Under the pieces are notes generated by a model. It ran no database searches, had not been told where the DNA came from, and worked only from the letters and a program-made list of their open reading frames with translations. Below, piece after piece: positions 581-43,315 of a DNA stretch of 43,315 bases (its first letter is position 1; the number at the start of each line of letters is the position of its first letter). Source of the stretch: Candidatus Desantisbacteria bacterium CG1_02_49_89 (lineage in GTDB: Bacteria > Desantisbacteria > UBA1551); the NCBI GenBank assembly GCA_001871075.1, contig MNUP01000128.1, positions 1 through 43,315 of the forward strand, given 5' to 3'. The position numbers and the translations under genes are program-made.

Positions 581-712
581 TATACCTCCAATTATAAACA
601 AAAATCAATAGTGAAATGTCAAGACCTGACCCCAGCTTATTCTTTTTTCATAATCACTTAAAAATCACTGTAATCATCTTTTAAAGAAAAATAGAACCGT
701 CCCCCTTTTTCC

Positions 713-997
713 CTATTTCTTATAAACCTTGCCGCGGTCGTCAGCCGCTGTCATGAACACTATTTTCTTGTCTTTGTCGATTTCATAAAAAAACCGCCAT
801 TCCCCTATGCGGTATCTCCACGTATCGTGCTCCTGACCGGTAAGTTTTACTATTTGCGAGCCGAAGTAAGGCTGCTTCCTTAATTTGGGATAGGCATAGT
901 TTTTGAGCTTTGCCTTTATTTTTTCCTGCCTTCCCCTGAAATCTTTTTCCAGGTCCTCCAGAAAACCTTCGGTCTCGAATATCCTGTACCCGTTCAT
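713..997 (-). CDS. Type II TA toxin, RelE/ParE family
   Basis: 94 aa, basic, with WRYRIGEWRFFYEID motif; start overlaps the antitoxin stop (ATGA). Confidence 0.88.
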   Translation of the reverse strand: MNGYRIFETEGFLEDLEKDFRGRQEKIKAKLKNYAYPKLRKQPYFGSQIVKLTGQEHDTWRYRIGEWRFFYEIDKDKKIVFMTAADDRGKVYKK

Positions 998-1233
998 ACA
1001 AATTTGCCTTTAAGAGCTTTCGCCTGGCTATGCCCTCTTTCCAGTTTCTTCATAAGGCTTTTATTGGCTTTTATCTCGGCCATCTCGGCCGGGTCGATCA
1101 GGCTGGATTCCTCGATGTGCCTTAGCGCCATTGTTTCGATAAAATTAGATATCGGCCGGTTATCCAGTTTAGCCCCTGCGGCAAATTCTTCATAAGCTTC
1201 TTCCGAAAGCCTTAAAGTGATCGTTTTTGGCAT
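994..1233 (-). CDS. Type II TA antitoxin, CopG/ribbon-helix-helix type
   Basis: MPKTITLRLSEEAYEEF...ISNFI RHH pattern; GGAGGT RBS upstream of ATG 1233; lies upstream of the toxin. Confidence 0.82.
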   Translation of the reverse strand: MPKTITLRLSEEAYEEFAAGAKLDNRPISNFIETMALRHIEESSLIDPAEMAEIKANKSLMKKLERGHSQAKALKGKFV

Positions 1234-1266
1234 AATAAACACCTCCTTTTCATCTGCTTCATATAT

Positions 1267-1295
1267 ATTCTATCATACTCTAATGTATTTGTCAA
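1267..1295 (-). promoter_or_regulatory. Sigma70 promoter of the RelE TA operon
   Basis: Minus strand TTGACA-17 nt-TAGAAT with TG extended -10, about 35 nt before the ATG. Confidence 0.7.
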
Positions 1296-1478
1296 GAAAA
1301 AAGAGATTAAAAAAACTTGGGTGTCAGGTCACTTATCACCTACATACCCGGGCCAGGCACGCTTTCCCTGCAAATTCTTTTGCGAGATTCCTGAGACTCT
1401 CATTCTTACTGCATTTTTCCGCTCCACCTTCCATCCCGGAACCTCTATTTTGCTTCCTTAAACTTTCAGCTTTCAGCT

Positions 1479-1506
1479 AAAAAGCGGGTATAATCCCACT
1501 TTTTTT
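1479..1506. terminator. Possible bidirectional intrinsic terminator
   Basis: AAAAAGCGGG-TATAAT-CCCACTTTTTTT hairpin with T-tracts on both strands. Confidence 0.4.
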
Positions 1507-1569
1507 ACTCCTCAACTCCCGGACCTTGACCGCAGAGCGGGCGGGGCAACTCCAGGACTTGCTGTTTTT

Positions 1570-1637
1570 CCGAAGAACCATCCACACAGCTCTGGCTCGA
1601 AGGTCCCTGCGTTGAGCGCCGGAGGCGCTGCAGGGAC
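1570..1637 (-). repeat. Two-hairpin mini-element family 1, copy A
   Basis: Minus strand GTCCCTGCA-GCGCC..GGCGC-TCAAC-GCAGGGAC-CTTC-GAGCCA-12nt-TGGTTC-TTCGG; homologous to 2477, 7198, 12517 and 29805. Confidence 0.7.
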
Positions 1638-1848
1638 AAAATACCATTAATCCATTAATCAAACTGTTTCTAATGTCAAGACCTGACACCTTTTTTATTT
1701 AAGAAAAATTTCAAATGTAAAGATCTGTTAGAGACACCACACTAGATAACGAACTGCGGGGGTTGCCTCATTTCCGGTTTCATCGGAACTACAGGGATCG
1801 CTAAATAACCTGAATTGTTCAATTATTTAAAGGGAATAAAAAATGGTG

Positions 1849-1924
1849 CCGTGCCAGCCGAAGCATTTGCGATCTATCTGCGAAATGCAGATGCCCAGAT
1901 TGCAAAGTATTTGCGTAGGCGTGG
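1849..1924 (-). repeat. Long-hairpin mini-element family 2 (CCTACG...CTWCGG)
   Basis: 76-nt insert relative to the uninterrupted copy of the same flank at 2661-2680; homologous to 9484-9635 and 19580-19654. Confidence 0.65.
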
Positions 1925-1936
1925 GCTGTCCCTAAT

Positions 1937-2443
1937 TTATAAGAAAAACACCAGGATAGGAACCACATTGGCAGCTCCCAGGATAATAAGAAGCCAGAAA
2001 GGCAGGCTCCTGCCCCTCTGCCCTGCTTTGTCTTCAAGCTTCCCCGCGATAAACACCGCCATTGACAGCATAACGATAAAAGCCCAGACCGGCGGCGCGA
2101 GCTTTGGCTGCCATCCTGTGACCAGATATAGACCGAAAACAAACCACCCCTCTATCATTGCCAGGATACCTGTGCTTGAGTAAATATTAAGTTTTCCGGA
2201 CTGCTGGCCGCCGGGTTTGTTTTCATACTTGATCCTGCTGTATATCTCCGCGGCGATAGAAGCGGAAACTAAAATTGATACCAGGCAGAATAAAACCAGG
2301 CACAATGAATAATGGCGGGTATGCCCGTAAAAAAGCAGCAGGGCTAAAAATATGAACGAAACGATCGCCGAAGAAAAAATTAAAAATCCCGTTATCTTTT
2401 CTAACCTTTTCCCACCATTCCCGGATCCCTCGTTTTCCATCAT
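1937..2443 (-). CDS. Hypothetical membrane protein (about 5 TM segments)
   Basis: 168 aa with several hydrophobic stretches; GGAGG RBS upstream. Confidence 0.7.
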   Translation of the reverse strand: MMENEGSGNGGKRLEKITGFLIFSSAIVSFIFLALLLFYGHTRHYSLCLVLFCLVSILVSASIAAEIYSRIKYENKPGGQQSGKLNIYSSTGILAMIEGWFVFGLYLVTGWQPKLAPPVWAFIVMLSMAVFIAGKLEDKAGQRGRSLPFWLLIILGAANVVPILVFFL

Positions 2444-2476
2444 GCCGGCCTCCGTTCAGTAAACATAGTTGTTTTT

Positions 2477-2555
2477 TCGAAGAGTCATCCACTCAGTCCT
2501 GACTCGCAGACCCCCGCGTTTTGTCCCGATTCTTTTTATCGGGACTGCAGGGGGC
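2477..2555 (-). repeat. Two-hairpin mini-element family 1, copy B
   Basis: CCCCCTGCA-GTCCCGAT..ATCGGGAC-AAAAC-GCGGGGGT-CTGC-GAGTCA-12nt-TGACTC-TTCGA. Confidence 0.7.
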
Positions 2556-2973
2556 ATTGAACCTTGGAACCATTGATCCTTTTATCTATTAATCTATTAA
2601 TCAAATAAGGAGCCATCCACTAGCTTTTAACCTGAATTGTTCAATTATTTAAAGGGAATAAAAAATGGTCGCTGTCCCTATTTTTCACACATTGAGTGGG
2701 TTTGGTTGTTCTATTTTAGTCGATAGTGAAATGTCAAGACCTGACCCCAGCTACTTAATTTTATAACGTTCGACTTACGACGTTCGACGGTATTTAAAGA
2801 ATTAAGTAATGTGTCCCCGGAATCAATATGACCCCAGCTTTTCACTTGCCGATGTACGATGCACGACCCGCTAGGGCGATGCACGGTATTTAGCTAATGA
2901 AGACCTGACACCTTTTTTTTGCGCATTTATGACCCCTTAATATCCCCTTGACTAATCGTGCACTAATCGTGCA

Positions 2974-4365
2974 CTAATCGTGCACTCGATATCTCGTACT
3001 CCGCCCCATCCCAATCTGAACGATAACTTTCTTTTGTAAAAGATCGTTTAAGTCTTTATTTGCCTGTCTTAATGAAACTCCGGATATTTCGGCGTATTTT
3101 TTCCGCGAGATTTCACCTTTCGCTTTAAGGTATTCTATCGCCTTCTTTTGGCGATCATTCAGATCCAACTTATGAAGTTTTTGATCTTCGATTGCCTTGG
3201 CAAACGCCTTTCCGGGCCCCCTCAACGTAACGTTGAACCCTCCAGACAATTCTTCGAATATTGGATCGGCCAGTTTCTCCGCCCGCATGGCCTCGACTAC
3301 GCGATTCGTTCCCTTCCCCCAATGCTCGATGTATTTAATGTAGAACAGGCGTTCGGCGAGGAATCTGTTACGCGGTATCGAGAGATGCTTGCGCTTAAGC
3401 ATTGCAGGGGTAAGCGGTTTGGGCAACTCTCCCGGATTCCAAACTTCGATACGGCCGTCGTAAATCGACAAATGAGTGTCCGCATTCGACCAATAGTCCC
3501 TGTGTGCAAGTGCGTTGTTCAGAATCTCTTCCAGCGCTCTGAATGGGTATTCCCATTTATCGAACCGTTGATTGGCATCGAAGAAAACCGCGTGCTTGGT
3601 ATGTTCCGCGATGAAAGCCAGGGCTTTTTCGCGGAGATCAGGGATAGTTCCTTCCAGCACTTTCATGTCGAGATAATCGTTCCCTTCGCTACCCTTGAAC
3701 CTGGCGACACGAATCTTCGCTTGCACGAAGAATTTCTGCGGCTGTTTTCCAAAAAGTAAAATAGCCGTATTGTTCGGCTTACTGCCTTTAAGCAAGTTTA
3801 ATCGCGCAAGCGCATCTTTCACGCTCGTTTTTGCCGGTACGATCAAGCGTTTTTCATCCTTGGCTTTATCCAGAAACCATGATACCTTGGCCGCGTCGAT
3901 GTCTTTTAGCGAAGCGCCCTTGCATACCGCCTCATCAAATTGAAGTTTATCTTTATGTTTTTCGAAGATTAACCGCTCGTATTCGTCTTTGGTCATCTTG
4001 ACCGTCGAACGCCCCGCGCGCTTATATGGCCGCCCGAACGCAAGCACCAGGCGATCGTGCGATTCTTTGACCTCTATGACAACCACTTCCTTGCCGTGAA
4101 TATTCTTAACGGTTACCTTTGGGTAAAGTTTCGGATCCGTGTGCTGGGCGATTTGGTTGACCAATTTCTCGATCGTGCCCTTGCCGATTTGAACTCCGAC
4201 AACCTTGCCTTCCGGAGAGACACCGATAAATATCCGGCCGCCTTCTGTATTCGCGAAAGCGACCGCCGTCTCTACGATTGCGTCCATCTCGGATAAAGAC
4301 TGCTTCCGCTCAACCGTCGTTGATTCAGCAGAACCAATCATCTTTGATAAATTCTTCGTCTTCAT
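2974..4365 (-). CDS. AlbA_2/Schlafen DNA-binding domain + HATPase_c_4 (RecG C-terminal-like) + wHTH protein
   Basis: ESTTVERK..AFANTEGGRIFIGV (AlbA_2); EILNNALAHRDY..IEVWNPG..PRNRFLA..IEHWGKG; C-terminal HTH. Confidence 0.88.
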   Translation of the reverse strand: MKTKNLSKMIGSAESTTVERKQSLSEMDAIVETAVAFANTEGGRIFIGVSPEGKVVGVQIGKGTIEKLVNQIAQHTDPKLYPKVTVKNIHGKEVVVIEVKESHDRLVLAFGRPYKRAGRSTVKMTKDEYERLIFEKHKDKLQFDEAVCKGASLKDIDAAKVSWFLDKAKDEKRLIVPAKTSVKDALARLNLLKGSKPNNTAILLFGKQPQKFFVQAKIRVARFKGSEGNDYLDMKVLEGTIPDLREKALAFIAEHTKHAVFFDANQRFDKWEYPFRALEEILNNALAHRDYWSNADTHLSIYDGRIEVWNPGELPKPLTPAMLKRKHLSIPRNRFLAERLFYIKYIEHWGKGTNRVVEAMRAEKLADPIFEELSGGFNVTLRGPGKAFAKAIEDQKLHKLDLNDRQKKAIEYLKAKGEISRKKYAEISGVSLRQANKDLNDLLQKKVIVQIGMGRSTRYRVHD

Positions 4366-4588
4366 ATTCTTCTCAAATAGAATCCTTGATCGCCCGGCGC
4401 TCTTCTTTTAACTCTTTTTGAATTCCGCCCTTAATTTAAAGACCTTTCCGCCACTGTATTTAACCTCGGTAATTTCATGTCCTCCAGTTATCCAAAATAA
4501 ACCAGCCTGTCCCCTTTTACATTCGGTATTGACCTAATTCCGGGGACATAATACTTAATTCTTTAAATACCGTCGAGCGTCGAACGTC

Positions 4589-4705
4589 CCGCCCAACAAG
4601 ATTTCCTCCCTAAAGATTTCCACCTTTAAGATTTGCGCCCTAAATATTGGCGCATCCGCCAATTCTTAAGGCGGAGACGGACAAGGGCGGACAAGGGCGG
4701 ACAAG
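4589..4705 (+). repeat. Self-nested palindromic mini-element stack
   Basis: Three left halves CCnCC..AAGATTT, a central double hairpin, then three right halves GRCGGACAAG. Confidence 0.7.
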
Positions 4706-4891
4706 CTGTGCATCGCAAAATGCAGTCATGGTTTAAAAACTTGTCAACGTATCAGCGTGTCAACGCAACTGCAAGGTTTTTTTATTTGAAACAGTGTTAA
4801 CTCTGAGATACAGTCATTTGTTAAAAACTACTACTGGTTCCGTGGTTCTGGGTTTAAAAGTTAAACAGATTGAATAAATAGAAACAACGAA

Positions 4892-5881
4892 CTATTTTTT
4901 TAGTAGGTTTAAAACCACTTTTATCATTATATCCTTTTCCGTAAGTTTACTAGCGGCAATCATCAACGTCAAGGTAATCAACGTGTTTTCGTCTATGCGC
5001 TTACTGCCATCGAGGCACAATAAAATGTCATTCCGCTGTAAGAAATATACAAATAAAGTCGCGGCGATACGTTTATTACCATCCACAAAGCTGTGGTTCT
5101 TTGTTACAAAATATAAAAGGTGCGCGGCTTTCTCTTCGATTGTCGAATAGACATCTTTCTTGCCGAAAGTTTGGTAAATAGCCCCTATGGAGCTTTTAAA
5201 ACCGCTGTCTTTTTCCTGCCCGACAAGCGGGGAATCTTTAAACCTTACCTTTATCTCGCTTATAATGTTTTTAGCCTCTTCATACGTCAATTCATATTTT
5301 ACTTTTTGAGTTCCTGCCGGCGTCGCAAGCCTCTGATGGTCGAAATCATCTAAAATATTCAGCGCTCGTGAGTATTCTTCAATAATTCGAATAATTCCTT
5401 TAGACTCATCCGGCACATCCTCCAACGATGCAATGTTGCCCAATAAGCGCACCGCTTCCCGCAAATTGCAAATTTTTTCTGATTGCACCCGGAGCTTTTT
5501 TTCATTGAGCGTGTAACCATCCAATAGATACCGGCGCAGAACATTTGTGGCCCAAATACGAAATTGTGTTCCTTGTTTAGAATTCACGCGATAACCGACA
5601 GAAATAATCGCATCCAGACTGAAATATTCTACTTGATAGATTTTTCCGTCCGTACCAGTTGTTGCAAATTTTGCAACAACTGAATTTCTTTTTAACTCAC
5701 TTTCTTTAAATATATTATGTAAATGCCTCGATATAACGGATTTATCCCGTTCAAACAGGTCTGACATCTGGTTAAGACTTAACCAAACGGTATCCTTGAC
5801 CAGCCGCACCTCCAATCTGTTTTTGTATAAAACAACTTGTCCTCGGGAATCTTCTATCTTCATTAGCTTTTTAGGCGCCAT
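4892..5881 (-). CDS. Virulence protein RhuM / Fic-Doc fusion family protein
   Basis: RhuM motifs DTVWLSLNQMSDLF and LDAIISVGYRVNS..TQFRIWAT, plus Doc-like Fic motif HSFVDGNKRIA. Start uncertain (5893 TTG, 5881 ATG or 5863 ATG). Confidence 0.88.
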   Translation of the reverse strand: MAPKKLMKIEDSRGQVVLYKNRLEVRLVKDTVWLSLNQMSDLFERDKSVISRHLHNIFKESELKRNSVVAKFATTGTDGKIYQVEYFSLDAIISVGYRVNSKQGTQFRIWATNVLRRYLLDGYTLNEKKLRVQSEKICNLREAVRLLGNIASLEDVPDESKGIIRIIEEYSRALNILDDFDHQRLATPAGTQKVKYELTYEEAKNIISEIKVRFKDSPLVGQEKDSGFKSSIGAIYQTFGKKDVYSTIEEKAAHLLYFVTKNHSFVDGNKRIAATLFVYFLQRNDILLCLDGSKRIDENTLITLTLMIAASKLTEKDIMIKVVLNLLKK

Positions 5882-8201: not shown

Positions 8202-8265
8202 ACCCGGTCCTTTTATAACCATTTTGTTGACATCAACGAAATGGTCCGCGATGCTCTGCCAAATT

Positions 8266-9046: not shown

Positions 9047-9813
9047 AACCACGAATTATTTTACAGGGAACCCTCCACCAAAATCGGCGGGCAGGCTTAC
9101 GAGAACTTAAACTTCACCACGGAGACACAGAGTAATCTTTGGCTCATATTAAAAACCAAAGGCTACTTTTAACCACGAATTAACACGAATTTGCACGAAT
9201 TAATCTTCTGCTTGATTCTTGATACTATACAATAAAGTCTAAGAAATAAATAGTTCTATATTAATATGCGGGAATATACAATATTATATATATAAATGGC
9301 TAAATGTCAATAGAAACCACACGATTGCACACGATTTCCACAAGATAAACCACAGAGGCACGGAGAAATATTTTTGTCATATTAAAGGCCAAGAACTACT
9401 TTTAACCACGAATTAACACGAATTTGCACGAATTACAAACTGTGTAAACTTGTAAACTTTATAAACTACTTTTTTACAGGGAACCCGCCTACGCAGATAC
9501 TCCGCCAACATTAGCTTCCCGCTATTCGCGTGAATGTTGCGGATGCTTCCACCTTCGCAGTAACTCAGCAAATCCATAATTCTCCTGTTCGGAGAGGATT
9601 CGCTGATGCTACGGCGGACAAGCCGGCGGGCAGGCCCACCCCTACGCGAACCATAAATGTGCGATGAATCCGACCGCCACAAAACGCAACTTGAAGGTTG
9701 CGGCTATCCGCAAGCCTGAAGGCTTGCCCTGCGAAAACAAATAATTGGACGATTAGACGATTAAACAATCAGGGCTGAAGCCCTGAGTTACGCAAACCTA
9801 AAGGTTTGCCCTA
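9047..9813. repeat. Mosaic intergenic repeat stack (10-mer CACGAATT arrays, 9-mer GTAAACT arrays, family-2 elements, GTAG REPs)
   Basis: TTAACCACGAATTAACACGAATTTGCACGAATT at 9170 and 9402; REP hairpins at 9683-9732 and 9770-9813. Confidence 0.75.
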
Positions 9814-11907
9814 CTTAATCCACGGACTATCGGGGTAGGCGACTTTAAGCTGAGTAGAAACTGAATCAGCAGAGGTAAAATCACCGAGACCGAGAAAGGA
9901 CTGACGCTGATAATACAGGATTTCGGGGAGAAGGACTTTGATGACAGTGCTGAGCTTAATTGCCATGTCAAGATGGAAAAGAGCGTCCTTGTATTTCTTG
10001 GACTGGTAAAAATACCGGCCTTTAAGGAGCCAATAATACGGTTCAAGCTTTTTCCAGGGAATGGATTCATCCCACTCGGCAAGGGAGTTTTTGGCGCCGT
10101 CCAGCTCTTTTGTCTGCAGATACGCGTCCACCTGCTGTGCAAGGCTGCCTTCAAGCGCTATCTCCTGCTCGTAGGTATATTCTTTTTCCTTGTAAACCTT
10201 GTTGTAATACTCTTTCGCCTTGCCGGGATCGCCTTTGAGAAGCCAGGCATCCCCTATTCCGGTGTAGATCTGCAGGTTCTCTGAATAGGATATCTTGTAG
10301 TCGAGCAGGCGGGAATATTCCTCTATCGCGGCATCATAATCCCTGAGTTTTTCAAGATGCAGGTCTGCAAGTTTAAGGCTCGCGTCTATGAGGGGCCTGC
10401 GCACTTCCCTTTTTTCCCTGTCATCGTAAACCTCGTTGATCAGTTCCTTGTAGATGTCCTTTGCAAGCTCGTTGGAAAGCGGGTCATCCCCTGTCAGGGA
10501 TTCTGCTATACGGTTGGAAAGCTTTAGGACATTGAGGTTTGAGCGCCAGCCACGCAGAGCGGTGAAAAGGAACGGAAGCATTTTCTTGCCCAAGCGCAGC
10601 AGTAGTTCAGCGTCCTGCAGATTCTTCGCGCAGTCCCAGATAAGAAGGAGCTGGGGCAGCTGTAACTTATCAAATGAATACTCCCGCATAACCCTGACAT
10701 AGCTTTTAAGCCTGGCGTTATAGTTGTAATCAGTAAGCTTAGGCTCGCACACGGTGCTGACTGTAACGGAGAGAACATCCTCTACCCCATCCTCCCCGGA
10801 TTCCCGCAGGGTCACCCGGTATTTGCCGGAAGAAAGGAAAATGTGTTCTGTCTGCGCGCCTTCAGCTTTTTCGCCGTCACCGAAATCCCACTCGTAGATA
10901 TGGCCTTCCCTTTCAACAGCTTCAAACGCGTAGAAAAGCATAAAACCGAAATCAGATGGAAGAAAAGAGGTCTGCCGGAAAACGAAATCAGCGCACCAGG
11001 TCTTGTTGTAGGCTTCAAGAGCCTGCGGCTCTGCTTTCCAGGCATCCAGGAACTGTTCTCTTGGGATGGGCTGGTAGTAGTTGTATTTCCTGGCGGGGTT
11101 TTTCCAGTCTGTAAGGGAAGAAACAGCAAGCTTCTGCGCGTCCATCCCCCACAGCGCCTGCCAGTAGAGCTCGAACTTGTGCAGGCCTTTTTCAAGATCA
11201 GCCACAGTATAATGGTCACCCTGCCAGGACGCGTTGTGGCCTCCGGGCCACTGCACGATCATAAGGCCGTCTATGAGCAGGAACGAGGGGCCGTCTGAGG
11301 ACGCGGCAAGCTTGAATTTTCCGGGTTTGTTTATTATAAGGTAGCCTTCGTAAAGGCTGAGGTGGGGAACGGTGTAGTTGTACGGGGAATAGCTGTCAAA
11401 GATGTTCCTGCGCAGGCCGGCGCCGATCACTTTTCCCTTATTGGCGAACATATTCTGCATATCCTCCCAGGAATTGACTATGCCCCGCGTAGCTTCCCAC
11501 TCCCGCAGGATAAGCCCGCCTTTGGGCTCCCATTCTTCAGCAGGCTCCTGGGAAGGAACAAGGACATTGCATCCGAAATAGAAGGTGTAAGGCTCGTATT
11601 TCTCGTCAGCCTTGAAAGCGACGAAGCTGACCCCATACGGACTACAGAAGAGCATCTTGTACGGGGTTACGACCCCGCGGTTGTCATATATGCGCAGGTC
11701 AAAGCCGTCTGCCTGAAGGCTGCCCCCTGTGACAAGCTCAGCGTAGGCGGTATTGCCTATCTGGCGGCCCTGGGTGGAATAGACGGAGAACTTGCGGCGG
11801 AACTGCCAGGCGGAGTCGCGCCAGTCAGGCTGGGCGAAAGACCAGGCAGAACCACAGACAAGAAGCAACCAGAGAGGGATAAAAACAAATAATACTATTT
11901 TTTTCAT
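9811..11907 (-). CDS. Exported protein with PA14-like, PKD and TPR domains
   Basis: Signal peptide; W..SAWQFRR N-terminus; YEGYLII..G.FKLAASSDGPSFLLIDG (PA14-like); YEWDFGDG..HIF..G.Y.VTL (PKD); C-terminal TPR helices. Confidence 0.78.
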   Translation of the reverse strand: MKKIVLFVFIPLWLLLVCGSAWSFAQPDWRDSAWQFRRKFSVYSTQGRQIGNTAYAELVTGGSLQADGFDLRIYDNRGVVTPYKMLFCSPYGVSFVAFKADEKYEPYTFYFGCNVLVPSQEPAEEWEPKGGLILREWEATRGIVNSWEDMQNMFANKGKVIGAGLRRNIFDSYSPYNYTVPHLSLYEGYLIINKPGKFKLAASSDGPSFLLIDGLMIVQWPGGHNASWQGDHYTVADLEKGLHKFELYWQALWGMDAQKLAVSSLTDWKNPARKYNYYQPIPREQFLDAWKAEPQALEAYNKTWCADFVFRQTSFLPSDFGFMLFYAFEAVEREGHIYEWDFGDGEKAEGAQTEHIFLSSGKYRVTLRESGEDGVEDVLSVTVSTVCEPKLTDYNYNARLKSYVRVMREYSFDKLQLPQLLLIWDCAKNLQDAELLLRLGKKMLPFLFTALRGWRSNLNVLKLSNRIAESLTGDDPLSNELAKDIYKELINEVYDDREKREVRRPLIDASLKLADLHLEKLRDYDAAIEEYSRLLDYKISYSENLQIYTGIGDAWLLKGDPGKAKEYYNKVYKEKEYTYEQEIALEGSLAQQVDAYLQTKELDGAKNSLAEWDESIPWKKLEPYYWLLKGRYFYQSKKYKDALFHLDMAIKLSTVIKVLLPEILYYQRQSFLGLGDFTSADSVSTQLKVAYPDSPWIK

Positions 11908-12007
11908 ATTAAAAGCCAGAGGCTACTTTTAACCACGAATTAATACGGATTTCCACGAATTACAAACTATATAACTTTGTAAACTGCTCCAAAGACTACC
12001 ACGGAAG

Positions 12008-12080
12008 CCCTCTGCTGCTCCGAATAACCCGGAGCAAAACGCGAGGACCTTCGCCCGCCAATAATCGTGGCGGGCTACGG
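12008..12080 (+). repeat. Two-hairpin mini-element family 1 variant (copy G)
   Basis: 73-nt insert relative to the empty site at 42211-42263; same stem-hairpin-AAAAC-stem-CTTC-hairpin-TACGG layout. Confidence 0.62.
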
Positions 12081-12241: not shown

Positions 12242-12484
12242 GTAGCTCAAACCTTCAGGTTTGATATCAGGGCTCCCACCTTAAAAATTGGCGGGTCTTC
12301 GAAAAGCCCTGAGTTACTCGCAAGCCTTAAGGCTTGCCCTACGAAAACAAATATTACGGGGCTCCCTCCTTAAAGATCGGCAGCTTGCCCGCCAACGCTT
12401 GCTGGGCGGGGGTCTTCGAAAAGGCTTGCCCTACGAAATCTACACCTAAGAGACCATAAATAGCAGAGCAAGCTCTGCCACTAC
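12242..12484. repeat. Cluster of GTAG/GTAA-tagged REP palindromes with nested inserts
   Basis: GTAGCTCAAACCTTCAGGTTTGA; reverse complements of GTAGGGCAAGCCTTAAGGCTTGCG and GTAGTGGCAGAGCTTGCTCTGCTA. Confidence 0.75.
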
Positions 12485-15817: not shown

Positions 15818-16070
15818 AGGGGCTCCTTTGTTCATTATAGCTGTCATGAGTCATGGTTCATGAGTCATGGGTTGAATCAATTATGAGTTATGTCCCAAAG
15901 GGATCCCTTCGGGAAATTATGAATCAACAGCAAGGTATATATTGCCCGCCCCTTCGGGGCGAGGTCTCGCCCCGATGGACATCGGGGCGGATAACTCAGG
16001 GCTTCAGCCCTGAAATCAAACCTGAAGGTTTGAGTTACAGCAAACTCAGCGAACTCAGCGGCGAGATGCG

Positions 16071-16699: not shown

Positions 16700-17182
16700 G
16701 AAAATCCGTAAAAATACAACTTATATGTTGTATTTATTCCAATTTTGTCATTTGGACTCCCATATGCATTCTGCATATAAATATATGCGATTTGAATATA
16801 GAAATTAATATCCACAAATGCGCGATAAATCGCCCTCCTAACTGACTGGCGGGCAGGAACCGCTACAAAATAACGCAAGCCTAAAGGCTTGCCCTACGAA
16901 ACAGATTGTTTCGCTCCGCTCGCAATGACAAAATTATTACAATAATGTTCCGTGTTGTTGCGTTGACACGCTGTCCGATGACTCCGTATGAGTCGATACG
17001 TAGTATCGGACTCCATCGGAGATACGCTGACGCACTTTTATCCCCTCATCCCAACCTTCTCCCTCATTAACACCCTCATCTCAATCTTCCCCCACACATC
17101 CACCCTCACCTTATTCCTCCCCCGTCAAGGGGGAGGAAAATAAGGAATAAACTCATTTCAGGGGGGGAAGAAGATTAAGGAT

Positions 17183-19444: not shown

Positions 19445-19579
19445 AGAAAATTACCACGAAAGCACGAAATTTGGAGTAGAGCATTTAGGAGTAGACCCTT
19501 TAGGGTCGTAAAACAACGGGGCTAAAGCCCCTACTCCCAAAACTACGATAAAAATCCTTGTTGTTGCATTGACACGTTG

Positions 19580-19654
19580 CCTGCCCGCCGTAGTATTAGC
19601 AAACCTTCTTCGGATAGAAGAGTTTTAGGTTTGCTAAGTCTTTACGTAGGCGGG
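19580..19654 (-). repeat. Long-hairpin mini-element family 2
   Basis: 75-nt insert; deleting it restores the 8-mer array TTGACACG-TTGATACG-TTGACACG. Confidence 0.7.
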
Positions 19655-21650: not shown

Positions 21651-22411
21651 AAAAAAGGGGACGGGTTCATTTATTTTCCTCTTTGAACGGCCTGCCTCTT
21701 CTTCTTATCTGCATTTTTCTGCCTAAAATATTTTCTATCTTTTCTTTGAATACATCATTCCCAAAGGCTACTCCCTTATTTACTGACTCTGTAATAAGTT
21801 TCCATTCAAAATCAGGTATGCTTTCTTTAAACCATTTCTCATATTTTTTTTGCCTTTCATCTTCATTGCTACCCAAAGATAAAAACCAGGAATCAAAATC
21901 AAGAAGCGGATCTGCTTTAAAACCGATCTTGCCATTATAGCTACTCCATTTATAATCTCCGGGCAACCGCGTGATCCCCGCTCTTGCCGGATTCATTTCT
22001 ATGTATCTGGAACAAGCAAGCAGATAATTATCCATGGAAACCGGGGAGCTCCTGAATCTCCCCTCCCAAAGCGTACCGGTACGTTTATATTTTTTATTCA
22101 CATACTGAGCATATTTCTGAGCAATGGATTTAATAAATTTAGCAAGATGCTCTTTGACTAGCGGTTCAAGTAAAAAATGAACGTGGTTATTCATCAGAAC
22201 ATATGAATATAAATTCATTTCATATTCTGTTTTCGCGATTTTTATCAACCTTAAGAAATATTGAAAATCGTCATCGCAAAAAAATATGACTTGTTTATTA
22301 TTGCCTCTATGAATAATATGATATGTTACATTCGCAAGAGCACGCCTGGCATATCTTGGCATTATCTTTTTGCCTCTTTATAGTTAAATAAATGAACCCG
22401 TCCCCTTTTTT
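21651..22411. mobile_element. Y1-transposase element with perfect 26-bp terminal inverted repeats (TIRYT/RAYT-like)
   Basis: AAAAAAGGGGACGGGTTCATTTATTT at 21651-21676 and its reverse complement at 22386-22411; interior is AT-rich compared with the flanking genes. Confidence 0.8.
21667..22362 (-). CDS. HUH Y1 tyrosine transposase (IS200-like/REP-associated family)
   Basis: MPRYAR..YHIIHRGNN, YVLMNNHVHFL (HUH), GTLWEGRF, RYIEMNP, Y.WSSY, C-terminal RGRP. Confidence 0.92.
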   Translation of the reverse strand: MPRYARRALANVTYHIIHRGNNKQVIFFCDDDFQYFLRLIKIAKTEYEMNLYSYVLMNNHVHFLLEPLVKEHLAKFIKSIAQKYAQYVNKKYKRTGTLWEGRFRSSPVSMDNYLLACSRYIEMNPARAGITRLPGDYKWSSYNGKIGFKADPLLDFDSWFLSLGSNEDERQKKYEKWFKESIPDFEWKLITESVNKGVAFGNDVFKEKIENILGRKMQIRRRGRPFKEENK

Positions 22412-23297: not shown

Positions 23298-23425
23298 GGT
23301 AACTCCTTAAAAACGTATCAACGTATCAGCGTATCAACGTGTCAGAGTAACTACAAGGATTTAATAAATAAAATCTCAAAGTTTTAAATAAATTCCTTAT
23401 GCATTTGCGTTGACACGTTGACACG

Positions 23426-24427: not shown

Positions 24428-24562
24428 TTAACCTCCGAAAATCAATTATGAGTTATGAATTATGAATTATGAGTGAAGGAATCAGGGCTTTTGCCCTGAA
24501 TTGAAATAAAAATCCTTGCTGTTGATTCATAATTCATAAATCATAATTCATAATTATATTTA

Positions 24563-28013: not shown

Positions 28014-28252
28014 GGTTTATTCATCGGCCATTGGCCATTGGTCATTTGTAATTTGTTAAAAACTACTACTCATAAAACAACGGGGCTAAAGCCCCTACTC
28101 CGAAAATCAAAATACGCAAACCTAAAGGTTTGCCCTACGAAATATCAGGGCTGAAGCCCTGAGTTACGATAAAAATCCTTGCTGTTGCGTTGACACTTTA
28201 ATACGCTTTTAAACAAATGACTAATGACAAATGACTAATGACTGCATTTAAA

Positions 28253-31245: not shown

Positions 31246-31363
31246 GTTTCCCTCCAAAAATTAGGTCAAAACTCAAAGGTCAAATCGCAAATCGCAAATC
31301 TATGGAATTTCAGCTTTGACCTTTGACCTTTGCGCTTTGAGTTTTGAGATATATTTATATTTT

Positions 31364-32389: not shown

Positions 32390-32494
32390 TTTTAACCACG
32401 AATTCTCACGAATTATCACTAATTACAATATAATGTTTGTGTAAAAAACGATCAGGTTCTATTCGTGGAAATTAGTGTTAATTCGTGGTTAAAA
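32390..32494. mobile_element. 105-bp MITE-like element with TTTTAACCACGAATT TIRs
   Basis: Perfect 15-bp TIR; near-identical copy at 34799-34904. Confidence 0.68.
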
Positions 32495-34798: not shown

Positions 34799-34904
34799 TT
34801 TTAACCACGAATTTTCACGAATTATCACTAATTACAATATAGTGTTTGTGTAATAAAATTATCAGGTTTAATTCGTGGAAATTAGTGTTAATTCGTGGTT
34901 AAAA
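34799..34904. mobile_element. 106-bp MITE-like element (copy of 32390-32494)
   Basis: Same TIRs and same core CAATAT..TGTTTGTGTAA..ATCAGGTT. Confidence 0.68.
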
Positions 34905-35567: not shown

Positions 35568-35687
35568 TTAAGCCTCCCGAGTAAGTGTTAATGACAATTA
35601 TGAGTTATGAATTATGAATGAAGGAATTATTTTAATTAAAAAATGCAGGTGGAATTTTAAATAAACTCCATGCAGTTGACTCATAAC

Positions 35688-36842
35688 TCATAACTCATAA
35701 TTCATAATTAAGTTGTATAGTTCTTCGCCGGGGGTGAGGCCGCAGATATCCTGCAGGACCGCGTCAACTCCCTTTGTTTTAAGCAGAGCCTGCAGGCTCT
35801 GCGCATCCTTATCATCCGGGTTGTCGTAAGAAAGCGCTGCCTTTATGCCTTTCACGAAATTAATGGGTTTCAACCCATATTCGAGCGCGAGTTTAGCCCC
35901 GCCGATAAGCCTGTCCGTGGGCTTCAGCTTCCTTACAGGGTCCTTGCCTACCCTCGCGACCGTATCGCCCAGGGAAACGTTTGCAAACCTTTCCAGCAGA
36001 TCGTTAACGTGAGCCTGGTAATCCGCCGGCGCGAACCCGTGCTTCTTTATGAGCGCCTTGCCCGATTCGTCCATTACAGCTCCCAGCACGATCCCGCGTA
36101 TCTCTTTGTCCTTCACAGCCTCGTAGATATACGTGTATCCTTTTTTGTAGCCGAGGTAAGCGGATATCGCGTGGCCCGCGTTGTGCGTGAAAAGCTTCCT
36201 TTCCTCATACGCGTGGAAATTGTCTATGGGTATCACGCCGGTTATTTTGGGGATCTCGCCCCTGAACCCGGGCCTGTCAACAGGCAGTTCCTTGTACGCT
36301 TCCGCGAGAACAAGCAAAGGATCCTTGCGGGAAAGTTCTTCCGGGATAACAGGCACCATGCGGCTCACAACCGCTTCCACGAAACCAAGCTTCGCCTCAA
36401 CTTCTTTCCTGCCCTGGTCTGAAAGATCGTTAAAGACCATATCTTTAAAGATCTTCCTGACATCCATCAGGTTCTCGCAGATTATTATATTGAGGGGAAC
36501 CTTGTTCCCTTCCGCGAGCCTTTTTTCAAAGCCTTTCGCGATAAGCGGGGCTATGAATTTCAGGACGCCTGCGCCTACAGCGGTGGCAAGAAGGTCAGCC
36601 GAGGCGATCTCCGCGGCCACGGCCGCGGCATCCTTTGAATTCACTGCGCGGACGTTTTTAACCGTTATTTCCTGCGGCTTGTTCCCGACTATCCTCAGCG
36701 CGTACTGCCGCTTTTCGTTGAGCAGGGACAGCACTTCCTCTTTGACATCCACAAACACAGTCTCGTACCCGGACTCAAAGAACAGCTGGCCCATGAAACC
36801 GCGGCCTATGTTGCCTGCGCCGAACTGCACCACCTTTTTCAT
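35688..36842 (-). CDS. mtlD: Mannitol-1-phosphate 5-dehydrogenase family protein
   Basis: QFGAGNIGRGF, TAVG, IIICEN, V.RMVP, RKLFTHNAGH, D...RVG.DP.RKL...DRL. Confidence 0.85.
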   Translation of the reverse strand: MKKVVQFGAGNIGRGFMGQLFFESGYETVFVDVKEEVLSLLNEKRQYALRIVGNKPQEITVKNVRAVNSKDAAAVAAEIASADLLATAVGAGVLKFIAPLIAKGFEKRLAEGNKVPLNIIICENLMDVRKIFKDMVFNDLSDQGRKEVEAKLGFVEAVVSRMVPVIPEELSRKDPLLVLAEAYKELPVDRPGFRGEIPKITGVIPIDNFHAYEERKLFTHNAGHAISAYLGYKKGYTYIYEAVKDKEIRGIVLGAVMDESGKALIKKHGFAPADYQAHVNDLLERFANVSLGDTVARVGKDPVRKLKPTDRLIGGAKLALEYGLKPINFVKGIKAALSYDNPDDKDAQSLQALLKTKGVDAVLQDICGLTPGEELYNLIMNYEL

Positions 36843-40333: not shown

Positions 40334-40993
40334 TTACTCATGGCTCATGACTGCTTCAAGGAGGCGGCGCGCGACTTCCGCGATCTTCATCCTTGTGGTG
40401 TCTACCAGGACCGCGTCGTCCGCTTTTCTGAGCGGGGCTATCTTCCTTGTGCTGTCCATCCTGTCCCTTTCCAGGGTTTCTCTTAAGACCTTGCCGAAGC
40501 TGTCCGGGAAACCTTTTTTCTTCAGCTCTTTGTGCCTGCGCCTGGCGCGCTCTTTGGGAGAAGCAACCAGGAAAAATTTCCTGTCAGCAGAAGGGAATAC
40601 AACGGTGCCTATATCCCTGCCCTCTGCGACGATCCCGCCTTTCCCGCCCATTTTCCTCTGCAGGACCTTCATCCTCGCCCTGACGCCCGGAACAACGGAT
40701 ACGTAGTGAGTATTCCTGCTCACCTCCGGGTCCCTTATCCTGCCGGACACATCCCTGCCGTCAAGGAATACCTTCCTGTCCCTGAGAGAGATCCTGGTCC
40801 TTGCGGCAAGCAAGGCAAGCGCCCTGCCGCTTTTCATATCGGTTCCCTTTTCCATTGCCTTCAGGGTGAGAGCGCGGTACATTGCGCCCGTGTCCAGGTA
40901 AAGGTAACCGAGTCTTGCGGCAACAAGCTTTGCCGCCGTGCTTTTACCCGAGCCCGCGGGGCCGTCGATAGCGATCACTAGTTTTTTTTGCAT
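40334..40993 (-). CDS. cmk: Cytidylate kinase
   Basis: IAIDGPAGSGKST, DTGAMYR, EGRDIGTVVFP. Confidence 0.95.
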   Translation of the reverse strand: MQKKLVIAIDGPAGSGKSTAAKLVAARLGYLYLDTGAMYRALTLKAMEKGTDMKSGRALALLAARTRISLRDRKVFLDGRDVSGRIRDPEVSRNTHYVSVVPGVRARMKVLQRKMGGKGGIVAEGRDIGTVVFPSADRKFFLVASPKERARRRHKELKKKGFPDSFGKVLRETLERDRMDSTRKIAPLRKADDAVLVDTTRMKIAEVARRLLEAVMSHE

Positions 40994-41177
40994 ATGATTA
41001 CGGTGATTATACTAATTAACCACAGAGGACACAGAGACACAGAGAAATATCTGGCTTTGGCAAATAATTAATAACTACCTTTTTAACCACGAATTTACAC
41101 GAATTTACACGAATTTGCACGAATTTCAACTCTGTAAACTTTATAAACTATATAAACTTTGTAAACTGAATTTTGAT

Positions 41178-42035
41178 TTAGGTCTTAAAGACCGCGTCGC
41201 GGGATCTTTTGGCTGAATCGAGTATCCTGGCCAGAGAAGCGCCGTTACCGCTCTTTATGAGGCCTTCTATCCTGAGTATTTCGGACCTGAATTTCTTAAG
41301 GGCTTTCAGCACGCCCGCGCGGTTGGAAACGAATATGTCCCTCCACATCCCGCCTGAGCTGGAAGCGACCCTTGTCGTATCCCTGAACCCGCCCGCAATG
41401 AACCTTTGCGCGCCTTCCGCGCCCAGGGCTGACCGCACAAGCGCCACGGCAACAAGATGCGGCAGGTGGCTTGTAAGCCCCAGGACTTCGTCGTGTTTTG
41501 CGGGGCTTAACAGCTCCACGCTTGCACCCGCGCTCTCCCACATCCTTTTAACCGCGGCAAGCGCCTTACGGTCTGTTCCGGGAACAGGCGTAAGCACGCA
41601 GACCGTTCCGATAAAAAGGTTTGATCTCGCGTTTGCCACGCCGCCAAGCTGAGAACCGGCAAGCGGGTGACCGCCCACGAAACCAATTCCGTTCGGGAAA
41701 CGCGGTTTTATTTTATCTGCGACAAGGGCCTTTTTGGTGCTGCCCGTATCGGTGATCACGCAGCCCTTTTTCAGGAAAGGCAGGATCCTGCTGACGATCC
41801 CCTGTATAACGCCGACAGGCGCGGCTATCACGATGATATCCGCATCCCTTACGCCGGCCCTGAGATCAGTTGTGCAGCTGTCAACCGCGCCAAGCCTCAC
41901 GGCTTTCCTCAGCCTCGCCCTGTTCCTTCCGACGCCGGTAACCCCGGACGCCGCTTTCTTTTTTCTTAGCGCCATTCCAAGGGAACCGCCGATCAGGCCC
42001 ACCCCGATAATACTTATATTTCCGAGTTTTTTCAT
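41178..42035 (-). CDS. tyrA: Prephenate/arogenate dehydrogenase
   Basis: IIGVGLIGGS, TDTGSTK, GGHPLAG, HD...TSHLPH, GFRDTTRVA; start placed at ATG 42035. Confidence 0.9.
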   Translation of the reverse strand: MKKLGNISIIGVGLIGGSLGMALRKKKAASGVTGVGRNRARLRKAVRLGAVDSCTTDLRAGVRDADIIVIAAPVGVIQGIVSRILPFLKKGCVITDTGSTKKALVADKIKPRFPNGIGFVGGHPLAGSQLGGVANARSNLFIGTVCVLTPVPGTDRKALAAVKRMWESAGASVELLSPAKHDEVLGLTSHLPHLVAVALVRSALGAEGAQRFIAGGFRDTTRVASSSGGMWRDIFVSNRAGVLKALKKFRSEILRIEGLIKSGNGASLARILDSAKRSRDAVFKT

Positions 42036-42379
42036 CTTATTAGCCACAGAGGACACAGAGAGATACTATTTTACCACGAAAGCACGAAAAAATACATTTT
42101 TGGCTTTGACAAATGACTAAAGACTGCCTTTTAACCACGAATTTCCACTAATTCCCACGAATTACAGACTATGTAAACTTGTAAACTCTATAAACTATGT
42201 AAACTGCTCCAAAGACTACCACGGAAGCGCGGAAGGACGGAAACACGGAGTAATCTTTGGCTTAGACCCAGAAACCTTTAATCCATTAAACCTTTAAACA
42301 AATACATAACTACTTCATAACCACGAATTTCCACGAATTTAACTTTTAACTTTTAACTTTCAACTTTCAACTTATTTTA

Positions 42380-43075
42380 TCACGCTCCCCTGCGCTTAAG
42401 GATCGCTTCAGCCAGCGTGAAATCCTCGGGATAGGTGATCTTTATGTTTTCCTCGGAACCCGAGACTATCTTCACCTCGTGCGGCAGTCTTTCAACAACG
42501 CTTGAATCGTCGCTCCCGACAAAACCGTCCTTCCTGGCCTTGTCATACGCCTTTATTATCACGGCGCGCTTGAAACACTGCGGGGTCTGCACGGACCAGA
42601 GTTTTGACCTGTCAATGGTCTGCTCTACGAACATTTTCTTGTTACCCAGCTTTACGGTGTCCTTCACAGGCACGGCCGGCACAGCTGCCCCGCACCTGAC
42701 CGCTTCCTCCATGCACAGGCTCACAAGCCCGGCTGTCGCAAGCGGGCGGACGCTGTCGTGTATCAGGATTATGTCTATGTCCTTCGCGGTCTTCAGCAGC
42801 CCGCTGTAAACCGAGTCCTGCCTGAACCTGCCGCCCGGCACAACCGCCTTCACCTTCCCGTATTTATGCCGCTTGGCGATGCTGCGGCAGAAACCCATCC
42901 TGTCATCCGGCGCCACTATCACCACATCCCTTATGCCCGCGAGGTTCTCAAAAAGCTCAAGCGACCAGCATATCACGGGCTTGCCGCCCAGCATCAGGAA
43001 CTGCTTGTAGGAATCCTTCTCATCGGAAAATCTCTTGCCCTTTCCCGCAGCTACGATTATCGCGCACGCTTTCAT
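42380..43075 (-). CDS. ispD: 2-C-methyl-D-erythritol 4-phosphate cytidylyltransferase
   Basis: IIVAAGKGKR, KQFL, GG.FRQDSV, IHDSVRP, QTPQ.F, NIKITYPED; GGGGGTG RBS before ATG 43075. Confidence 0.93.
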   Translation of the reverse strand: MKACAIIVAAGKGKRFSDEKDSYKQFLMLGGKPVICWSLELFENLAGIRDVVIVAPDDRMGFCRSIAKRHKYGKVKAVVPGGRFRQDSVYSGLLKTAKDIDIILIHDSVRPLATAGLVSLCMEEAVRCGAAVPAVPVKDTVKLGNKKMFVEQTIDRSKLWSVQTPQCFKRAVIIKAYDKARKDGFVGSDDSSVVERLPHEVKIVSGSEENIKITYPEDFTLAEAILKRRGA

Positions 43076-43107
43076 ATCACCCCCAAACAGATCCTGGATC
43101 CTGGATA

Positions 43108-43277
43108 CTAGTGTGGTGTCACATAAATCCCTTGACATTTGATTCTGCTTTGAGTTGTCATTGCGAGCGACCAAAGGGAGCGTGGCAATCTCGATTTTTA
43201 GGTCGAGATTGCTTCGTCGTTAACACTCCTCGCAATGACAGCCCAAATGTAAAGATCTGTTAGAGACACTACACTAG
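43108..43277. mobile_element. CTAG-bounded MITE containing a (T/C)GTC-tagged palindrome; a second tandem copy starts at 43274
   Basis: CTAGTGTGGTGTC...GACACTACACTAG ends; internal GTCATTGCGAG..GCAATCTC..GAGATTGC..CTCGCAATGAC; 43108-43149 is repeated at 43274-43315; right end also at 1712-1745. Confidence 0.7.
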
Positions 43278-43315
43278 TGTGGTGTCACATAAATCCCTTG
43301 ACATTTGATTCTGCT

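Follow-up and report, generated by a model that had tools for sequence, protein, structure and literature searches.

Layered hairpin repeats in the intergenic spacers of a Candidatus Desantisbacteria genome: a probable case of densely nested repetitive extragenic palindromes

The window and its base layer of repeats

The stretch of DNA analysed here (the window) is the 43,315-nt contig MNUP01000128.1 of Candidatus Desantisbacteria bacterium CG1_02_49_89, an uncultured bacterium of groundwater; it is contig C100 of a 2.48-Mb genome bin of 150 contigs (GC 0.49, completeness 93.5%), and our subject is the small hairpin repeats that fill the spacers between its genes. Nearly all of these genes are carried by the minus strand, and they include a MoxR/BatA-type operon, the genes for pyruvate dehydrogenase (pdh) E1alpha, E1beta and E2, transaldolase and ribosomal protein S1. 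An Rfam scan and a tRNA scan of the window rendered 0 matches each.

The initial annotation, made from the letters of this contig alone, had described nearly every spacer as a stack of layers, those within housekeeping operons included. Open reading frames (ORFs) were called crudely (at least 100 aa, greedy choice), and repeat coverage was measured with 14-mers present at least 5 times in the genome; a test with k=11 had been dropped, as it returned 43% of ORF bases as covered. Repeat 14-mers cover 115,440 of the 362,734 spacer nt (31.8%), compared with 29,626 nt of ORF sequence (1.4%). In the window, 27 of the 28 spacers of at least 40 nt contain 20 nt or more of repeat, as do 1059 of the 1374 spacers of at least 60 nt in the whole genome, which bears out the description. 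The same is true of the housekeeping operons: the spacers between pdh E1alpha, E1beta and E2 are 118-235 nt long, compared with 27-50 nt in a metagenome contig from a sister species (L032).

The base layer is made up of word arrays that serve as the arms of palindromes, of repetitive extragenic palindromes (REPs) tagged GTAA or GTAG, and of hairpins tagged TGTC. Tandem Repeats Finder returned 86 rows with 6-30-nt periods in the window, and in many cases two arrays, inverted to each other, form the arms of a palindromic unit around small hairpins. GTAG-tagged REPs had been annotated, and two such families are indeed present (GTAG-GGCAAGCC and GTAG-GGGC), but the commonest REP family is tagged GTAA. 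Strict patterns found 81, 37, 25 and 20 REP copies, of which 14 lie inside crude ORFs, so that the REPs are mostly extragenic. The commonest 10-mer of the genome belongs to the TGTC-tagged hairpin, and TGTCATTGCGA is present in 195 copies. The base-layer features of the window are the following.

9710..9814, unstranded: cluster of four REPs from three families (sequence)
15956..16038, unstranded: GGGGCGAGRYCTCGCCCC palindrome with two GTAA-tagged REPs (sequence, fold)
23312..23425, unstranded: palindromic unit with inverted 8-mer arms AACGTATC / CGTTGACA
24444..24555, unstranded: palindromic unit with inverted heptamer arms AATTATG/ATTCATA and a small central hairpin (folding energy dG z = -6.6), missing from the orthologous 63-nt spacer of L032
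28022-28046 and 28213-28243: array arms enclosing the chain of three REPs in the next line (Tandem Repeats Finder, fold)
28082..28167, plus strand: chain of three empty REPs, GGGGCT..-TACTCC, GCAAACCT..-CCTAC and CAGGGCT..-AGTTAC (Tandem Repeats Finder, fold, sequence)
31263..31340, unstranded: palindromic unit, its heptamer arms inverted, in the pdh E2-E1beta spacer, which in L032 is 27 nt long
32392..32492, unstranded: unit of ~100 nt resembling a MITE (a transposable element of miniature size with inverted repeats), with ends TTAACCACGAATT / AATTCGTGGTTAA, between pdh E1beta and E1alpha
34801..34902, unstranded: second copy of the ~100-nt MITE-like unit
35596..35707, unstranded: palindromic unit with heptamer arms AATTATG / ACTCATA
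42131..42373, plus strand: stack of 7-10-mer arrays (CCACGAATTC, ACTATGTAA, CACGGAAG, AAACCTTT, TTTAACT), including the uninterrupted reference for the filled site at 12006

Filled and empty sites

A genome-wide scan for inserts of 15-150 nt, whose 12+12 nt flanks are adjacent elsewhere, gave 7256 raw events, which were reduced to 824 sites once tandem-array artefacts had been taken out and slid boundaries merged; 125 of them lie inside crude ORFs. Their inserts fall into 38 families with at least 3 members, plus 456 singletons, and 29 of the 824 sites, under the same strict flank rule, contain a second, independently supported insert. Random spacer intervals of 20-80 nt rendered a junction present elsewhere in 174 of 39,990 cases (0.44%), and a junction present at least 3 times in 21 (0.05%).

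In the window, eight inserts had been singled out as sites where deletion restores a sequence seen elsewhere, and this proved correct for all eight, with boundaries 0-2 nt off the earlier ones. Six of them were recovered by the genome-wide scan without prior input, and the other two by a local boundary scan in which the joined 8+8 junction was counted elsewhere in the genome. The inserts and the modules within them are listed below, F13, F2, F11 and F20 being insert families.

1847..1922, plus strand: 76-nt hairpin insert in a repeat of the terminal inverted repeat (TIR) type, with 3 empty sites and an empty copy at ~2630-2680
4634..4675, plus strand: 42-nt two-hairpin module F20 at ...AAGATT^G... 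in an F13-like hairpin
9071..9095, plus strand: 25-nt module F11 (CCCTCC...GGCGGGCAGG)
12006..12078, plus strand: 73-nt structured insert in a CACGGAAG 8-mer array; junction 19 times elsewhere, empty version at 42220-42249
12266..12318, plus strand: GTAA-tagged REP hairpin (CAGGGCT...AGCCCTG-AGTTAC) with the 28-nt F13 (12275-12302) in its loop, folding as one extended stem (DNA parameters); excision of F13 gives a junction present 37 times elsewhere
12364..12421, plus strand: F13-type module holding a 29-nt CCCGCC...GGGCGGG hairpin (12383-12411), the three-layer case of the window
15893..15914, unstranded: 22-nt module F2 (two 4-bp mini-hairpins) in a heptamer array AATTATG/AGTTATG; excision gives a junction present 51 times elsewhere
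16834..16858, plus strand: 25-nt F11-like module, with 2 empty sites
16974..17021, plus strand: 48-nt hairpin insert in a ACGCTGAC/ACGTTGAC 8-mer array, with a 31-nt inner insert at 16983-17013; junction 7 times elsewhere
19579..19653, plus strand: 75-nt insert in a ACGTTGAC array, a CCCGCC...GGCGGG hairpin with a GTAG-tagged hairpin in its loop
29800..29878, plus strand: 79-nt structured insert in a CACGAA/CACGGA decamer array, member of a 5-member cluster at ~4 places in the genome
33599..33648, plus strand: GTAG-tagged REP (GCAAACCT...AGGTTTGC-CCTAC) with an F13-type 28-nt module (33607-33634) in its loop; empty forms at 29915-29937 and 28116-28138

Ends, targets and nesting of the inner modules

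The inner layer comprises the smaller hairpin modules F13, F11, F26, F20, F2 and F10, besides larger structured ones. Both boundaries of the copies in these six families were shifted from -6 to +6 and the 8+8 junction was rechecked. Excision at the exact boundaries restores a known junction for 22 of the 29 copies of F13 (at most 2 at any other shift), 37 of 74 of F2, 14 of 23 of F11, 16 of 45 of F10 and 6 of 10 of F26; F20 gave 4 of 7 at (0,0) and 5 of 7 at shift (-2,-6). The median recovery over all boundary shifts is 0. A target duplication of 0-2 nt had been annotated; its lower bound is the one that stands, as no duplication was found in any of the six families and only an ambiguity of 1-3 nt of microhomology is seen at the boundaries.

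Module F13 is 28 nt long (CCCTCC-loop-GGCGGG plus a tail TCTTCGA), and each of its 29 copies occupies the loop of a REP-type hairpin whose stem has at least 5 bp, a situation found for 34% of shuffled flank pairs. In 25 of the 29 copies it immediately follows the final paired base of the host's 5' arm, its left flank ends in CT in 28, and its orientation relative to the host tail is constant. Where the flanking genes are co-directional, it is anti to them in 23 of 26 cases, and 24 of the 29 copies are on the C-rich strand. Its hosts comprise at least 8 different stems and three different tails, and host stems vary by compensatory changes (CAGGGCT/AGCCCTG, CAAACCT/AGGTTTG, CAGGACT/AGTCCTG). The composites fold as hairpins within hairpins, and in the REP with F13 the two 5' arms stack into one stem (DNA parameters). 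The F13 pattern had 0 matches in 185,579 species genomes, its own genome excluded.

The other modules follow target rules of their own. The 25-nt F26 (10 of 10 copies) and the 42-nt two-hairpin F20 (7 of 7) are found at ...TT^GG.G.., the loop edge of F13- or F11-type hairpins; for F20, six of the 7 hosts are F13 copies which themselves lie inside a REP, so that three layers are present, and 5 of the 7 copies are an identical 42-mer. F11 is found in hairpin loops, in CGTGTC arrays and at ACAGGGAA^CTTAAGAG. F2, of which 74 copies with up to 3 mismatches to the 22-mer TCCCAAAGGGATCCCTTYGGGA are present in this genome, occupies at least 6 kinds of array as well as F2 itself, with the junction CCCAAAGG^GATCC, and its target carries a T at -2 in 56 of the 74 copies and a G at -1 in 54, the motif being TTG^CAA. 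Empty hosts far exceed filled ones, for instance 37-41 to 1 per junction. The annotated layers are therefore found with base-exact ends and with a fixed position and orientation of inserts inside other repeats.

Related genomes

The contig L032, whose E1beta is 88% identical in amino acids, is syntenic with the window from ~17.8 to 41 kb (about 23 kb). Its orthologous spacers are 27-63 nt long, compared with 118-320 nt in the window, and the frequent 14-mers of our genome account for 14 nt in its 18.9 kb; the inserts are thus missing from the orthologous spacers of this sister species. Two genes of the window are missing there as well, namely a Y1 transposase gene, dealt with below, and a DUF5107/TPR gene (25842-28013), which together with two repeat-rich spacers (25139-28252) stands where L032 has a 172-nt spacer. 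This latter gene has been gained or lost whole between repeat stacks.

The only other species of the order that was searched (genome G001) carries three GTAA-tagged REPs of the same family at its pdh locus (L003, 1358-1438), a locus at which the closer relative L032 has none, and an 82%-identical contig (L034) shows similar heptamer arrays. Since L032 is free of these repeats, while L003 has the REPs and L034 the arrays, the repeats are old in the group but patchy, and their expansion is lineage-specific.

Y1, RAYT and GIY-YIG genes

Ten Y1_Tnp matches are present in the genome, one of them truncated at a contig end. Three of the genes (two on contig C23 and one on C111) pass the NCBIfam model NF047646 for REP-associated tyrosine transposases (RAYTs), with 99.7, 94.7 and 99.5 bits at a cut-off of 80, and the motifs DHLH or NHYH and YIxNNP can be seen in the Y1/RAYT proteins. 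All three RAYT genes are flanked by REP arrays within about 1 kb. Those on C23 have GTAACTCAAACC...GGTTTGA and CAGGGCT..AGCCCTGAGTTAC arrays on both sides; these REPs are of the GTAA-tagged family that hosts F13, and some of them already carry F13. The base-layer REPs therefore belong to the known REP/RAYT kind.

For the inner modules the picture is another one. Of 1886 ORFs, only 4 lie between two CCNCC...GGCGG hairpins, and at the one of these that is a RAYT gene the hairpins are F13 copies already inside REPs. The proposed link to HUH Y1 enzymes accordingly stands for the base-layer REPs, with three RAYT genes and their matching arrays, but not for the inner modules, with which no Y1 gene is paired. 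The initial annotation had also pointed to the single Y1 gene of the window, which is not supported as part of this link: it scores 66.6 bits, below the RAYT cut-off, and the micro-elements do not flank it.

21657..22405, minus strand: Y1 (IS200-like) gene 21667-22362 between inverted 12-nt GGGGACGGGTTC repeats (21657-21668, 22394-22405)

This unit looks like a TIR-flanked insertion of its own. It is found inside the MoxR/BatA operon, where L032 has a 43-nt spacer, and a third, solo copy of the GGGGACGGGTTC repeat is present at 5918-5929.

The genome also encodes seven stand-alone GIY-YIG proteins of 80-97 aa (contigs C122, C74, C81, C142, C55 and C47). Three of these genes abut CCCGCC...GGCGGG hairpins, and several lie beside tRNA genes with duplicated tRNA pieces.

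Module F2 in other genomes

The exact 22-mer of F2 is present in at least 117 stretches of the species-genome collection, with ~0.14 expected by chance. They correspond to at least 50 assemblies (80 listed loci, counted by accession prefix), with multiple, unchanged copies, and in all 34 genomes that were searched again F2 was present, in up to ~80 copies (forward and reverse counts overlap), while a reversed control pattern gave 0. The carriers are labelled as Bacteroidota (including one isolate), Ignavibacteria, Patescibacteria groups, Calditrichota, Marinimicrobia, Gammaproteobacteria, Acidobacteriota, Auribacterota and one Synechococcus bin. Viral contigs gave 0 matches, and only 3 of 121 sampled genomes from the family of one carrier (G041) have the module.

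The flanks of F2 all differ across the 50 assemblies; their consensus is TTG^CAA and shows no covariation. Of 81 copies from other phyla, 15 are situated within the loop of a hairpin, compared with 4% in the control, and some of these hairpins are of the CGTCATTCCCG...CGGGAAT kind. The stems and the GGGATCCC centre are invariant and the two triloops vary, which favours the reading of F2 as two mini-hairpins. The same architecture as in our genome is seen in an unrelated uncultured bacterium, G039 (loci L127, L128, L146, L160, L188 and L267), with heptamer arrays, CCCCGCCC...GGGGCGGGCAGGC hairpins and, further inside, a GGCCTCG..AGAGGCC hairpin whose loop contains F2; two empty copies, with one mismatch each, were found of a hairpin that hosts several F2 copies. 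The F2 strings were not found in the main texts of the literature searched, and the supplementary REP lists of PMC3733652 and PMC6006769 might include related hairpins.

Genes bracketed by F2-like sequences were sought as a possible source. No gene bracketed by F2 halves was found in our genome. Two Y1 genes of Bacteroidota, L251 (genome G060, 1150-2050) and L255 (genome G041, 1300-2080), are flanked by TCCC-NNN-GGGA mini-hairpins: that of L251 has 110-nt direct repeats on both sides with the F2-like doublet TGCCAAAGGCA-TCCCTTTGGGA, and that of L255 is flanked by inverted TCCC...GGGA hairpins. These units are possible relatives of the source of F2. Homologues of the L251 protein are encoded in 11 of the 16 genomes tested and in none of the F2-bearing G039, G043, G046 and G054, and TCCCNNNGGGA hairpins near 6 of 30 Y1 loci (9 sites) are not clearly above the background of 0.21 per 3.3 kb at F2-bearing loci. 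The L251-type Y1 clade was dropped as the mover of F2 on account of the homologues missing in these four carriers and of the near-background TCCCNNNGGGA density.

Origin of the nested spacers

The reading that we favour, with a probability of roughly 0.55, is that the spacers are an unusually dense and deeply nested landscape of the REP type, in which several dozen hairpin repeat families of 22-80 nt have multiplied in this lineage. Inner modules would be pasted with single-base precision and without target duplication at one fixed place, which for F13, F26, F20 and F2 within F2 would be directly 3' of the 5' arm of the host hairpin, and for F2 otherwise the short motif TTG^CAA. Most likely, HUH Y1 enzymes of the RAYT/IS200 kind would act in trans on folded hairpins by single-strand cut-and-join, a reaction that leaves no target duplication; landing in their own or related hairpins would come about because the same structure is recognised as element and as target. 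Composites, once formed, would also be copied as units. Such enzymes would give the absence of duplication, the exact ends, the position at the stem-loop junction, the orientation and the strand bias. RAYTs cut REPs that are folded single strands, and which CT or CA site they use depends on the 5' tetranucleotide, as described in the relevant part of PMC8266576, and IS200/IS605 enzymes bind subterminal hairpins, in the account given by PMC6006769. We infer that Y1 enzymes move the inner modules through a single-stranded intermediate and that the process may still be active.

Several points weigh against this reading. F13 has its CT^ junction on the strand that does not carry the 5' GTAA tag, which is not readily reconciled with the published RAYT model, and F26, F20, F2 and F11 have junction bases other than CT or CA. 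A module of 22-28 nt is too short for separate guided left and right ends such as those of IS608. No Y1 gene in this genome is flanked by free-standing copies of F13, F26, F20 or F2, although the cognate gene may be missing, since the genome is 93.5% complete. F13 subtypes partly track the host type (CCCACC variants are mostly found in CAGGGCT or CAGGACT hosts), which suggests that some copies spread as composites, and a comparison of filled and empty sites cannot by itself separate insertion from precise deletion. Twenty-four sequencing runs, assembled as de Bruijn contigs, apparently hold one strain (0-2 differences per listed piece), and no population polymorphism or circle junction is visible in these contigs, which break at repeats (listed joint sides of at most 34 letters, mostly below 30).

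It is possible, though we hold it only tentatively, that the inner modules are a distinct class of gene-less mobile hairpins of 22-42 nt which enter other hairpins, those of their own kind included, at the stem-loop junction without duplication and so build nested trees, with F2 as the extreme case. If so, the modules would be smaller than any element with a known mechanism, and the distribution of F2, in at least 8 phylum-level groups but not in the majority of the carriers' close relatives, would call for an enzyme that acts in trans, is widespread and is passed on horizontally.

It can also be the case that the layers arose by duplication, recombination or gene conversion of ready-made composites, the empty sites being precise losses of hairpins by replication slippage, with no part for the insertion of single elements. 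The partial tracking of host type by F13 subtypes agrees with this, as does the composite of F13 and inner hairpin being present twice in the window (~8270-8345 and 12364-12421), and many filled/empty events are shifted copies of one composite. Nevertheless, we regard it as unlikely as the general origin of the layers: the same module core is found in unrelated hosts for F13, F11 and F2, empty hosts outnumber filled ones by the wide ratio given above, F2 flanks differ in all 50 assemblies, and deletion by slippage would need direct repeats, none of which flank the inserts.

Selection could instead have kept the modules as functional structured sites, whether terminators or stabilisers of RNA or sites of Ssn GIY-YIG nucleases, their spread being secondary. 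A strong orientation bias relative to genes, units directly after stop codons within operons and compensatory stem changes would be in line with such a role, and so would the seven small GIY-YIG genes, three with adjoining CCCGCC...GGCGGG hairpins, and the start of TGTCATTGCGA, which resembles the published Ssn-related motif (SRM) HGTCWY. The sister species, however, has the same operons with spacers of 27-63 nt that are free of these repeats, the window has no match to an Rfam family, the presence of F2 in 3 of 121 genomes of one family fits invasion and not a conserved function, and the base-exact nesting is left unexplained by function. We therefore consider this no likelier than the copying of composites.

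Less probable still is that another recombinase moves the inner modules, such as a homing-type GIY-YIG nuclease followed by repair, or an RNA-guided/DEDD (IS110-like) enzyme that targets REPs. It would account for the lack of a Y1 gene paired with the inner modules; small GIY-YIG genes are unusually many and some abut CCCGCC hairpins, and REPs are known as targets of other insertion sequence (IS) families, as noted in a section of PMC3733652. Such enzymes, on the other hand, normally move their own gene or leave duplications, and no candidate gene bracketed by modules was found, IS110-type genes lying outside that search.

That the stacked spacers are assembly chimeras, with short reads collapsed or mis-joined at repeats, is very improbable: the genome is a 150-contig metagenome bin and the de Bruijn contigs of 4 public runs all break within spacers, but a second metagenome contig (40,728 nt) is 100% identical over 20,972 nt with 14 spacers included, one Logan contig (19516-22412) runs across the 19579-19653 insert and shows 0 differences, a read is longer than most modules (22-80 nt), and modules and rules identical to these are seen again at dozens of loci as well as in other genomes, an isolate among them.

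Relation to known systems

The nested hairpin spacers take an already known type of selfish DNA to a greater extreme. The initial annotation had not recognised them as a described system, which was too strong a statement, as REPs, bacterial interspersed mosaic elements (BIMEs) and REPtrons, TIRtrons, REPs within palindromes and the insertion of a Nostoc repeat are all in print; its picture of the repeats as safe landing pads for each other is an evolutionary gloss, the data being of strict target specificity and not of selection for safety. New are the depth and regularity of the nesting, the stem-loop-junction rule, the self-insertion, the number of families that interact in a small genome from a poorly known lineage, and the presence of F2 across phyla.

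Elhai et al. (2008, Genome Res 18:1484) reportedly described SDR1-8 of Nostoc punctiforme, small dispersed repeats (SDRs) of 21-27 nt regarded as mobile, which are said to insert in heptamer tandem repeats and in each other. Our modules resemble them in being small (F2 22 nt, F11 and F26 25 nt, F13 28 nt) and at exact positions in other repeats, but they belong to a different phylum and apparently have different sequences. SDR5 sits between bases 3 and 4 of HIP1, according to the part of PMC4390886 that deals with it, and SDRs are presented as confined to Nostocaceae in the corresponding part of PMC5861425.

A close likeness is to REP/BIME/REPIN sequences and their RAYTs, or REPtrons (PMC3116915, PMC3333891, PMC6006769, PMC8266576), which share with our repeats the high-copy extragenic hairpins of 20-40 nt, in part with a 5' tag of the GTAG type, the clustered mosaics, the RAYT genes flanked by their own REPs and the expected lack of target duplication. 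Unlike in REPtrons, the REPs are here hosts themselves, with smaller hairpins at one fixed loop position and a nesting depth of up to three; GTAA is their commonest tag, no RAYT is paired with the inner modules, and there are at least 38 insert families in a 2.5-Mb genome. In the definition quoted from PMC6006769, a REP is marked by a GC-rich hairpin that has the tetranucleotide GT[AG]G at its 5' foot; two of our families carry GTAG, and the family that flanks the RAYT genes carries GTAA.

REPs inside small palindromes are on record in the portion of Di Nocera et al. (2013, PMC3733652) that concerns GTAG-23 of T. roseum, found in CCGSSCC(n3,4)GGSSCGG with many empty targets, and the same portion gives dimers of GTAG-15 of A. 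variabilis and CGTC-1 of H. neapolitanus as associations of the same kind. Like ours, these are tagged hairpin repeats within another palindrome; as far as that portion goes they are one layer deep, mentioned in passing and free of self-insertion, whereas here there are loop-junction rules, several families and a depth of 3. TIRtrons, with their TIRYT genes, as presented in PMC3733652, resemble the Y1 gene of the window and three paralogues of 221-231 aa, which lie between inverted GGGGACGG or GGGACAGS; GGGGACGGGTTC matches 7 of the 8 positions of the TIRtron motif GGGGWSAS given there, and its solo copies are dispersed. This likeness covers the Y1 gene unit only and not the nested micro-modules.

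IS200/IS605 elements and their gene-less derivatives, the palindrome-associated transposable elements (PATEs), likewise have hairpin ends, a strand bias and insertion 3' of a fixed motif without duplication, but modules of 22-42 nt are far shorter than any described derivative and several consist of a single hairpin. No full-length IS parent with module ends was found among genes next to F2 halves in this genome or, for TCCCNNNGGGA, near the 30 Y1 loci elsewhere. Classical MITEs of the cut-and-paste DDE type were rejected, no target-site duplication being present in any family tested.

TGTC- and CGTC-tagged hairpins are abundant and small GIY-YIG genes present, as with the NTS and Ssn-related motifs of Chenal et al. 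(2025, PMC11893778), where the SRM motif, HGTCWY...hairpin...RNCYNB, flanks the ssnA (GIY-YIG) gene, and the CGTCATTCCCG...CGGGAAT hosts of F2 in other phyla resemble the NTS published there. Unlike our modules, Ssn is a nuclease that modulates transformation, and not an insertion system (PMC11893778).

The pathway by which REPs are disseminated had not yet been worked out according to the RAYT work, in the part of PMC8266576 that addresses it. The present genome offers dozens of natural before/after pairs with base-exact junctions, a clear target rule and matching RAYT genes, so that the proposed chemistry is directly testable with oligonucleotides. It also shows that intergenic length in conserved operons can increase four- to eight-fold between sister species purely through such repeats. 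F2 would, if mobile, be among the smallest mobile elements known, and, being identical across distant phyla and patchy within a family, it is a simple marker for an enzyme search by association across genomes.

Other features of the window

The stretch 600-9800 is of lower GC and carries two Schlafen/AlbA_2-HATPase_c_4 genes, a RhuM/Fic gene and several small paired ORFs, which may be toxin-antitoxin genes; it looks like a defence or mobile island.

617..2745, plus strand: three copies of TGTCAAGACCTGAC, at 617, 1674 and 2732 (sequence search)

The same sequence is present twice downstream of another Y1 gene, on contig C80. Finally, a repeat of more than 100 nt ending in ...ATGTCAAGGGATTTATGYGACACCAYACTAG has 46 copies genome-wide, often at contig ends, and is found in the window at ~1700-1745 and 43175-43315; it resembles the terminal part of an insertion sequence present in many copies, at which the assembly is interrupted.

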